The notes: generated from the sequence alone by a model not told the origin. 64,000 nucleotides of DNA from Octopus vulgaris (GCA_951406725.2 OX597825.1:21948001-22012000); one strand, 5' to 3'. Positions 52,573 through 55,937 are shown, counted from the stretch's first letter. Program-made: numbers and translations.

Positions 52573-52613
<41 letters not shown>

Positions 52614-52778
52614 TACGACAGGCTTCTTTCAGTTTCCGTCTACCAAATCTACTCACAAGGTATTGGTCAGCCCGGGGCTATAGCAGAAGACACTTGCCCA
52701 AGATGCCACGCAGTGGGACTGAACCTGGAACCATGTGGTTGGTAGGCAAGCTACTTACCACACAGCCACTCCTGCGTA

Positions 52779-52842: not shown

Positions 52843-52894
<52 letters not shown>

Positions 52895-53043
52895 CATATA
52901 TACGACAGGCTTCTTTCAGTTTCCGTCTATCAAATCCACTCACAAGGCATTGGTCAGCCCGGGGCTACAGCAGAAGACACTTGCCCAAGATGCCACGCAG
53001 TGGGACTGAACCCGGAACCATGTGGTTGGTTAGCAAGCTACTT

Positions 53044-55244
53044 TATTTCAAAACATTTGCCATAAAGGCAGTACACAGATTAAGTTAGCTTTGCGGGCTG
53101 GACGAGGACATTAATGAGGTGAATGATAATGAAAGAAAGATGATAAGGATGGGAGAAGACAAAAAGCGCCCGCCGACTTTTGCTTCTCTAAAACATTGTT
53201 CTTTTTAAAGATAAACACAAAACGAGGTATTAAACCTCTTACAATTTTTACAAAACGAGGTATTAATCCTCTTACAATTTTTCAATTTTTGGACTTAAGT
53301 CCATTACTAATAATACATATCGTCCTCGAAATAGCTTGTGCCCGCGCCCTCCACCATCAACCACGCCTCCCTCAGAACGTAATCAAGTTCCGAGTTCGCG
53401 TCGCCCGGGACCAAGTTATAATCTTCATTGAGCTCATTTAGCCCAAGCGTCACGTCGAACGCCACGGCCTCCACAGCTACCTGCGGAGGCCGTTCGGGGT
53501 CCTGTGTGAAGGCTAAAGGTGCTCCCTTGTAGTGCTCTTCCATCACTTTTTCAATTTCTCCTCCTCTATAGAAGAGGACCAATACATTCAGTTCTTTCGT
53601 TGGCGGCACAGTTCCCGCCAACGGTATTCCTTCTATTGTCGGTGGCACAACCCCAACCGACGTAGTTCCGGGACATTCCGGTGCTACACTGACAGCCGGT
53701 AATGTCCCGTTTTTCTTCCTCTTTTTCTTTTTTTTTCCCTTTTCAACTGAGGGAGGGTGCGCTCCTCCGTGGCTGGAAGATTCGCCTTCCTCTCCTCATC
53801 CCTATTATCCTTTGGTGAGCACCCATTGTTGCTCACCTTCCTCTTTCGGCCTCTGTTTGAGGAGTCCTCTGCTTTACGGCTGTTATCGTTCCCTCTTCTA
53901 GAGGGGTTTTACTTAACTGTTCCGGGATCCTAATTTGTTCCCGAGGACAGTTCTTCTTTATGTGGCCGGACTCCAAGCACCGATGACACTTAGGGGGCGA
54001 CCCTCAAGCATCACCGGGTACCTGCACCCGGCCATTTTCAAAAAATCTGGAAGAACCAGATTGGCTGATTGGGTCCACAGGGTCAAAATTGCTTTTGACC
54101 CAACCCAAGCAGCCGCAGGAAGAACTTTTACATTGAGGAGCTTAGTTTCGCTGTCACCCAGACCCCGGCGGATAGTCTCCTCTATCCACTCGGGTTCTAT
54201 GTCGGGTGGCAATCCGCAGATCCAAGCTTTCATCAATTTCTTTTTTTTGTACGTGGGCAGGAATAAGATTTCCTTACCCTCCAGGGGTTTGCTAGCAAGT
54301 TTGCAAGCCTTTTCAGGGGTGTCAAATAGCAACCACACCGTTGCATATTTGACACCCCTGGAAATGAATTTAATTGTTGGCAAATACTCTACCAACTCCT
54401 CCTCAATTGCCGTCTTTTCGAATAGGGCGATGGTGTCGAGTGCCTTGGAGTAGGTTCTCAACACCACCGTCCTATCTTCACGGTCTTTTAACCACTTTTT
54501 AGGTGGTATGATTTCCCACTCCAAATTTTTTTTATTTTTCATTGCCATGTTTTTTTAAAAATATATTCAAATTAAACTCAAAAAGCAGGAAGAAAAGAGT
54601 TCAAAAGTCCAAATAAAATTTGATAGATTTTGGAAAAAACAAAAAGGAGAAAGCACAACAGAAGGGAAGAAATCAACGGAAAGTCGCAATAAAGAAAAAA
54701 AACAAAAGGGGGGCTTAAATGAAGTTCAAAATAAAGTTAATAAACAGAAAAAACACAGCAAAAATATTCTGGCCTTGCGGTACTCCCGGCCTGGGTTGAA
54801 CCTGGAACGCCGCAACTGCAACACAACCTCCACAAAAATGGGTCCGAAAGGTAATCCAATAGTGGCTTATTTTTATAATTTTTTATAATTTTTATAATTT
54901 TTATAATTTTCAACAAACCCAAACACAGCACTGGCTACCGCCAACGGTAATTTTAACAGTAACTGTATTGAATTCTGAGGATACGCCCCTCCACTATTTT
55001 TTCTTTTTTTTTTGCAATGAACACAAAAACGGCAGCCGCCGAGAGTAGGCGAAATTGTCTCAGAGTTGGACACAACTTACTGAAATAATAATTGGCACGC
55101 AATAAATTATGCCCAACTCACAATAAACAAAATCACTTACCTCGACAACTTTCGTTTTTGGTCTTTTTTCTTTAATTGGACGGGGCTGATTGACTCGCGT
55201 CCACTCTAGCTGAACAGGAAGCAACTGACTAATTGCGCATGTGC
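53044..55244 (-). mobile_element. ORF1-only non-autonomous non-LTR retroelement
   Basis: TSD gttagcaagctactt (53029-53043) versus gttagcaaagctactt (55245-55260). ~700 bp 5' UTR, a single gag/ORF1-like frame, ~260 bp 3' UTR ending at aataaa; no RT or endonuclease sequence. Confidence 0.8.
53307..54548 (-). pseudogene. LINE ORF1-like nucleic-acid-binding protein (~410 codons, frameshifted)
   Basis: 196-aa ORF with putative RRM-like segments (VWLLFDTPEKA; KAWICGLPPDIEPEWIEE). Restoring one base in the C-run near 53993-53997 gives EGRPPKCHRCLESGHIKKNCP (C-X2-C-X4-H-X4-C). A Lys-rich tract follows, then the 53307-53648 frame. Confidence 0.8.
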
Positions 55245-55937
55245 GTTAGCAAAGCTACTTACCACACAGCCTCTCCTGCGCCTATGATTGATTATAGTTT
55301 TGATTGATTATAGATTGATTATAGTTTTGAAGCAAAGAGAGCATTCGGAAAAGAAATGCAAGATGACTGACTTTAAAATCTCAATTAATATTAGAGTGGC
55401 ATGAAGGAAATTGTGAAAACTGAAAAATTTCAAGACCTTAAGGAATAAAGAGATAATGAAACTCATGAATGAAAAATGTTGCTGAGATACATAGTGTGTA
55501 TTCCGTAATATCTTCTAGGTCGACTATCAGTTATAAGCAGTTTAGTGATGACATTAGGATGGAATTTAGCTTTTAGAAATGCGTAAAAGCTACCTCCATC
55601 ACTGGGAAACTGTCAGAATCTCCTAAACTCGAAGTTGATCTACAAATAGCTATAAAGGAATAAGAACCTGAGGAAGGGCATAAAGACTTGTAATTATATG
55701 AATACGATGGAATCTACTGAGAAGGACAAACGGAAGAATATTGGAACTGAGTCCTGTATTCTCGATCTGCAGACATGTACCATCCAGAATTCAATAAGAA
55801 TCCAAATATTCTCAAAATTCTTAATGACTTATTCTCATCAAATCTCAAAATTATTTTCATGTTAATTTAATTAGCATGTAAGAGCTTTACGCGCAGCAAT
55901 AGTTATAATAATAATGTTAATAATAATAATAATGATG

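Follow-up and report, generated by a model that had tools for sequence, protein, structure and literature searches.

An ORF1-only LINE derivative at a single SINE site in Octopus vulgaris, likely copied in trans by an autonomous L1/Tx1-group LINE

How can an insert that has one reading frame and no room for a reverse transcriptase (RT) have spread as a retroelement? The question is raised by a 64,000-nt stretch of Octopus vulgaris DNA (GCA_951406725.2 OX597825.1:21948001-22012000; hereafter the window), for which the original prediction proposed an element encoding only ORF1 that borrows RT and endonuclease in trans. As predicted, a 2.2-kb insert between two flanking duplicates is present, on the minus strand at 53044-55244, bounded by AAGTAGCTTTGCTAAC (55260-55245) and AAGTAGCTTGCTAAC (53043-53029), and is too short to hold an RT. 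At a probability of roughly 80%, comparison of sequences leads us to read its family, denoted A, as a multi-copy ORF1-only LINE derivative at one SINE site, likely copied in trans by an autonomous L1/Tx1-group LINE with the same site and a similar tail. The insert and its surroundings comprise the following parts.

55261-55282, minus strand: tRNA-like A-box region, which forms the 5' half of the target SINE head that the insertion has split; from the sequence
55245-55260, minus strand: 5' copy of the target duplication; first ~9 bp common with the target, the rest likely element-borne target-like sequence
54549-55244, minus strand: 5' UTR; for the stretch upstream of ~54882, three interchangeable versions without homology to each other exist
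53995-54548, minus strand: N-terminal region of ORF1, codons 1-184, likely RRM-type by homology to autonomous ORF1s
53944-53991, minus strand: single CCHC zinc knuckle, out of frame in the window copy (Pfam PF00098, E=4.9e-4)
53598-53943, minus strand: basic, proline-rich linker with lysine runs and two of the window copy's 1-nt deletions
53307-53597, minus strand: C-terminal domain (~96 aa) with a P-x-W motif, predicted small alpha/beta (29-sequence alignment, AlphaFold2)
53071-53306, minus strand: 3' UTR, including a 33-bp tandem duplication (53217-53282)
53042-53070, minus strand: terminal motif TGCC-N5-GGCA ... AATAAA, common to sister families and the autonomous partner
53029-53043, minus strand: 3' copy of the target duplication, which regenerates the insertion site; tandem arrays reuse the regenerated site
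52900-53028, minus strand: rest of the target SINE (B-box-like GGTTCAGTCCC, body), then a (TA)n tail; from the sequence

The 5' UTR of the window copy is long, as anticipated, measuring ~700 nt with tcagtt at 55228-55223 and the ATG at 54548, and in family A it likely holds an internal promoter. At the other end, the 3' UTR runs into an AATAAA at the junction, again as foreseen, and the downstream duplication has its first two bases in common with this signal. Two claims needed amendment. The CCHC knuckle does lie in another frame, but instead of a single frameshift the window copy carries three 1-nt deletions (codons 184, 225 and 264) when compared with L030, a natural copy that is intact. 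The ~15-bp target-site duplication likewise exists, but its two ends match perfectly over only 9 bp in this copy because of an extra T in the 5' copy, and its 5' half is probably in part element-borne. Neither an LTR element nor a retroviral gag is indicated: the window copy has no terminal repeats beyond the target duplication, and Gag/NC similarity in the PDB comparison is confined to the CCHC knuckle. The insert sits in one of two SINE copies (52577-52756 and 52864-53043) arranged in tandem with (TA)n between them and 96% identical over 180 nt.

The original prediction did not note that a single SINE head supplies both flanks, as its two halves, nor that this site is common to every copy. 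All 50 family A copies inspected are inserted at AAGTAGCTT in the tRNA-like SINE head, with the 3' junction at the same SINE position in 30/30 copies of one sample (L019 having one mismatch and L024 no 3' UTR) and 20/20 of another. The 5' SINE flank is the same in 25 of 29 copies scored, with three further copies being tandem units and one unclassified; the downstream flank, scored by pattern, is the same in 28/29. Uninterrupted exact 33-mer target sites number 53,949 in the 2.8-Gb genome (control, 0). The duplication is perfect at 15-17 bp in 16/29 copies and spans 6-13 bp in the other 13. In our reading, where the 3' target departs from GCTAAC (11 copies), the family version persists on the 5' side in 10, and for this reason family A likely carries its own target-like 5' stub. 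Family A thus has two hallmarks of retrotransposition, a target duplication and a precise 3' junction; poly(A) was absent from the DNA at the junctions of the 30 fetched loci. One copy, L024, stops at the ORF1 stop region, lacking the tail as well, but is still flanked by a 15-bp duplication in the SINE. At L046 and L138, the 3' junction consists of the tail and then the reverse complement of the SINE head, possibly reflecting opposite-orientation insertion at a quasi-palindromic site. We take the target repeat to be a tRNA-derived SINE, judging by its A- and B-box-like motifs. An Rfam search of the repeat gave no meaningful match, only AT-repeat noise. The available text of PMC4758252 names OR2 as an octopus CORE-SINE.

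The multiple copies with the same ends that had been predicted are plentiful. A DNA search of the genome yielded 39 near-full copies at 92-100% identity (39 scored of 3,352 candidates), and a protein search gave 150 places at 81-100% identity among the matches listed. A second sample, meant to avoid favouring full-length copies though still leaning to young ones, was drawn by the 3' end alone, as 20 of the 40 top matches to the final 162 bp; 20/20 were full-length (2.17-2.28 kb, one of 2.6 kb) and ORF2 was found in 0/20. Across both samples, 50/50 inspected copies have the ORF1-only layout and the SINE site. The nearest database protein to ORF1 is annotated as an uncharacterised Octopus sinensis gene (63% over 67% of the query), as might befit a processed host-gene pseudogene, but ORF1 is homologous to that of an autonomous LINE (29% over 193 aa with the partner L169 described below, E=3e-22). 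Such a pseudogene is excluded by this homology and a one-off internal deletion of a LINE by the absence of ORF2 from the 3'-end sample, so that the chance of either is negligible.

Family A has three non-homologous types of 5' end, which join a common body near window position 54882; in the DNA search, some matches begin at query position 363, consistent with swapped 5' ends. A splice-donor-like GAG/GTAAG lies at 55140 in the 5' UTR of the window copy, and AG/GTAAG recurs ~90-120 nt from the start in all three 5' UTR types (window 55136-55143; L022, L029), where it could possibly mark a retained 5'-UTR intron or a U1-binding site. Counted post hoc, the motif occurs in 7 of 22 distinct 5' ends, a set including truncated ends, against a mean of 1.8 and a maximum of 6 in shuffles. 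A search for a spliced retrocopy of 5' type 1, which a junction followed by G would escape, gave 0 matches.

An open frame and dN/dS below 1, both expected of a family that supplies its own protein, are observed. ORF1 is open over 412-414 aa in 3/30 fetched loci and over 414 aa in 5/20 copies picked by their 3' end, and the CCHC knuckle is in frame in the intact copies L007, L029, L030 and L031. Pairwise counts on natural copies give, for L030 against L007, 17 synonymous and 11 non-synonymous differences (omega 0.19); for the N-terminal 205 codons, omega between families is 0.11-0.28; for the C-terminal domain, it is 0.17 among A copies and 0.37-0.67 from family to family, synonymous sites being close to saturation in the latter comparison. 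ORF1 is thus under purifying selection, with dN/dS ~0.2. The protein is likely RNA-binding: its zf-CCHC match in the window copy (E=4.9e-4, 20.5 bits) lies just under the 20.8 cut-off, and a relative from family D (see below) matches RRM_3 weakly (E=0.013, below cut-off). The Pfam scan of ORF1 returned nothing other than zf-CCHC, and a PDB search gave no match to L1 ORF1p. Other named relatives come from O. vulgaris, O. bimaculoides and Argonauta.

Whether ORF1p serves its own RNA can be doubted on the evidence of one frame break. The same 1-nt deletion at codon 184 is found in 16/30 family A copies, among them all 8 members of a 100/100 clade with end branches of 0.05-0.5%, which may represent the spread of an ORF1-broken lineage. 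If so, trans-mobilisation would still hold, with ORF1p dispensable in cis: frame-broken masters would use ORF1p from siblings or the partner, and selection would act only on average. Against this, the deletion removes one C from a C6 run and is homoplasic, requiring at least 5 changes on the starred branches of the tree; the partner's copies also carry many scattered frame breaks, in which we see homopolymer errors made in assembly or by RT slippage; and ORF1 omega stays at ~0.2 over long divergence. The codon-184 breaks may stem from assembly error, RT slippage or a frame-broken master, three sources that look alike in the assembly. We consider a dispensable ORF1p unlikely, and prefer the reading in which the A protein would act as an RNA chaperone in cis.

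The C-terminal domain had been described as unrecognised, and remains so after fold and Pfam searches without a significant match. Natural sequences from the clade formed by A and its sisters B and C, 29 in all, align over its ~96 aa, with P-x-W near-invariant. AlphaFold2 predicts a compact beta-alpha-beta-alpha-beta-alpha fold (pLDDT 76.7, pTM 0.67); a single-sequence AlphaFold model of full-length ORF1p was too poor to use (pLDDT 35). The domain belongs to no Pfam family, and Foldseek returned no match at E<=0.001 in PDB or BFVD; the best VIA Z, 4.8 (rmsd 3.7, 76 aligned), is not significant, and the weak VIA matches are, as we group them, mostly alpha/beta-plait-like. A profile of the domain scored 9.0 against the C-termini of 11 related ORF1s, poorly aligned rows included, versus a shuffled maximum of 8.5, which is not significant. 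Lack of a fold or Pfam match proves neither novelty nor function. Element C2 has a C-type N-terminus and a B-type C-terminus, and this mosaic ORF indicates that the domain has been exchanged between families.

The tail provided the route to a possible source of the missing enzyme. The ORF1-only tail pattern, GCCYTWRTGGCAAA..AAATAAA, has 1,099 matches in the genome, 648 with the target directly after it (reversed controls, 0). Among 40 tail-junction loci inspected (of 100 listed and 648 in total), 29 contain ORF1 remnants and none has an ORF2 on the same strand within the unit; the pattern, as built, cannot match the partner's loop. Most of 20 inspected tails away from such junctions lie in an older variant of the target SINE, and one of them, L153, led to the partner L169. 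This 5.2-kb LINE has the same duplication and the same SINE flanks, an ORF1, an open 1140-codon ORF2, and a tail of TGCCTAAATGGCA..AAATAA; a young autonomous LINE at the same target site with a similar 3' end thus exists, in line with the shared end that the original prediction sought. The best PDB match of its ORF2 is human L1 ORF2p (E=8e-67), with R2 at E=1e-19, and L086, a 60%-identical relative, has APE, RT and zf-RVT domains in Pfam. By its sequence the partner belongs to the L1/Tx1 group, with APE endonuclease, RT and a C-terminal zinc-binding region, and is closest to L1.

The partner family is young and intact. It has at least 40 copies, and 40/40 scored matches to its 3' kb are 98-100% identical; of 20 copies fetched, 20 lie at the site, 5 have an open 1133-aa ORF2, and L205 has both ORF1 and ORF2 open. 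Because 19/20 also reach the 5' end, full length is not, as the original prediction implied, a special mark of the parasite. In L188 and L197, a family A copy directly abuts a copy of the partner. By the definition of target preference in the available text of PMC4494074 (more than 20% of flanks in one repeat), the SINE accounts for 20/20 partner and 50/50 family A copies, and by analogy such specificity favours the Tx1 clade for the partner. A point against this partner is that its similarity to the 3' end of A is limited to 37 nt (78%, E=0.048). With ORF1 only 29% identical, A is no recent deletion derivative of the partner, and would more likely be an old independent parasite.

The true partner might be another autonomous L1/Tx1-group family, either one with a different, GGG-type hairpin (L086/L107) or one of the older related families that also exist, such as that of L153. 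A GGG-hairpin element is flanked by the same duplication once, at L107, ~240-bp non-coding elements with GGG tails also occupy the SINE site, and L153-type tails match A's TTTAT loop exactly. Most GGG-family copies seen, however, adjoin other sequences than the target, and L153-type copies are degraded, with identities to the query copy of no more than 90%, and lie mostly in the older SINE variant, whereas the L169 family is young and on site in 20/20 copies. A different partner is therefore rather improbable, and mobilisation in trans by the L169-family LINE is the likely course. A shared target has a precedent as evidence for trans-mobilisation in Tx1-Mar and SINEU, as given in the accessible part of PMC4494074.

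In the proposed mechanism, transcription would proceed from the internal 5' promoter, starting in the target-like stub, and ORF1p would be translated and coat its own RNA. The partner's ORF2p would recognise the 3' GCC-N5-GGC/AATAAA tail, nick the SINE at AAGTAGCTT and prime reverse transcription, possibly aided by read-through into target sequence, which we propose because there is no poly(A) in the DNA. The terminal motif TGCC-N5-GGCA ... AATAAA is accordingly a likely RT recognition signal; against this, its hairpin is no more stable than shuffles (z -0.15 and -0.86). The 5' end would be joined via the target-like stub, and the regenerated site would take further elements, giving rise to mixed arrays.

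Such arrays are found. Families B and C are 48-51% identical to A in protein and D 26%; all are ORF1-only, and units of A, B, C and D stand head to tail in mixed arrays, of which one counts 12 duplicated sites over 28 kb. A is the unit adjoining the SINE remainder in 4/4 arrays inspected, consistent with new insertions at the regenerated 3' site. Arrays and exchanges might also arise if the elements spread mainly at the DNA level, by recombination or conversion between SINEs and by unequal crossover: seven same-tail units lie at ~2.0-kb spacing on C1 (G000:C1:223694764-223706787), a cluster that probably grew by tandem duplication, and the mosaic C2 ORF and 5' UTR swaps point the same way. But the outer flanks of dispersed copies are unrelated to one another, and at the 3' junction each locus has SINE variants of its own; relatives truncated at the 5' end occur with the same 3' junction, and the arrays mix families only 26-51% identical in protein, so that spread mainly by such events is very improbable and retrotransposition in trans remains our preferred reading.

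In an unrooted ORF1 tree of 59 rows, 11 of them unclassified, at least 11 A/B/C-type lineages group with the O. sinensis protein in a 100/100 clade. The branch of this clade is long (1.74), a long-branch join is flagged next to it, and none of the rows places an ORF2-bearing member in the clade. D and the ORF1-only unit of L086 fall outside it. On balance we lean slightly towards a broader picture, an undescribed and long-lived octopod guild of ORF1-only parasites of L1/Tx1-group LINEs, in which one partner enzyme and one safe-harbour SINE site would serve at least 11 lineages of one fast-evolving clade and separate others, with HeT-A/TART-like arrays, swaps of promoters and C-termini, and an unclassified C-terminal domain that might aid ORF2p capture.

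Other repeats in the same genome show related arrangements. Units of ~1.7 kb that are ORF1-only and end in a GCCCC-N-GGGT tail form a second guild, in long tandem arrays with intact autonomous LINEs (L086 1-9501; L088, L089, L090, L091, L092, L104, L114); several of these arrays end at a CACATGGAGGAAAGCACC junction resembling the inside of another element's ORF. The ~240-bp non-coding element with a GGG-type tail lies at the SINE site or 3-4 bp beside it, just before the junction in L116, L119-L121, L123-L127, L133 and L135; the genome has 35 such junctions, and among 20 inspected, ORF2 was found in none and ~10 were these elements. A further L1/Tx1-like family ends in GCCCTGTGT(G/A)GCT..AATAAAG directly before (TATC)n (L067 6560-7201, plus strand; L048 3500-4135, minus strand), which suggests that it targets microsatellites.

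Both ORF1-only LINEs and repeat-targeting Tx1 elements with dependants are already known kinds. The original prediction held the former to be described mainly from mammals, which is not so, because HeT-A (Jockey) and Ag-Sponge (CR1), both of insects, are known alongside HAL1 (L1) in the available text of PMC5786205 (HAL1 also in that of PMC5753468). In the open literature accessible to us, no ORF1-only elements that target a SINE are described for cephalopods. An annotation of octopus repeats from 2026 (PMC13282606) counts 80 L1-Tx1 families, 13 of them recently active, and mentions no non-autonomous forms or targets in its accessible part; its library may hold A-type families unnamed. The accessible part of PMC9115989 does not mention Tx1. 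Some non-autonomous LINEs retain ORF1 although SINEs spread without it, a puzzle for which the accessible text of PMC5786205 names only HAL1, HeT-A and Ag-Sponge. The octopus genome combines parasites and a partner, both young and intact, with one defined target of 15 bp, which makes the cis role of ORF1p, the tail signal and target specificity jointly testable. The system would have three tiers homing to one SINE, a LINE, a half-LINE and small non-coding dependants, and includes a LINE whose site-specific endonuclease/RT has a preference for inserting full-length copies.

HAL1 in the strict sense has a mammalian-type L1 ORF1 and a poly(A) tail. Family A can be ruled out as such an element, having no PDB match to L1 ORF1p, no poly(A) at its junctions and only zf-CCHC in Pfam. 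The HAL1 of mammals is, like A, a non-autonomous L1-group derivative that encodes only ORF1p and comprises several lineages (PMC5753468, PMC5786205, as far as their accessible text goes). Unlike it, A has an octopod host, a CCHC-type ORF1, a strict single SINE site and no poly(A) in the DNA, and occurs in mixed tandem arrays with at least 11 co-existing lineages in one clade. HeT-A forms head-to-tail arrays with RT-bearing partners, as does A. In the accessible text of PMC5786205, HeT-A of Drosophila, with TART and TAHRE, is likewise an invertebrate ORF1-only element with a specific target. It differs in its Jockey clade, chromosome-end target and host function, whereas A inserts into SINE heads that lie dispersed in tens of thousands, with no evident role for the host. 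Ag-Sponge shares with A the character of an ORF1-only non-autonomous LINE outside mammals, but belongs to the CR1 clade, and sequence-specific targeting is not reported for it in that same part of PMC5786205. Similar in targeting are Tx1L/Tx1D, Keno, Kibi, Koshi, and Tx1-Mar with SINEU, in which, according to the available text of PMC4494074, an APE-type LINE targets another repeat and a non-autonomous dependant shares that target. The octopus system, whose partner is placed by its likeness to the L1/Tx1 group rather than against named Tx1 sequences, differs from these in that the target is a tRNA-like SINE head and the dependant encodes a conserved ORF1 protein.
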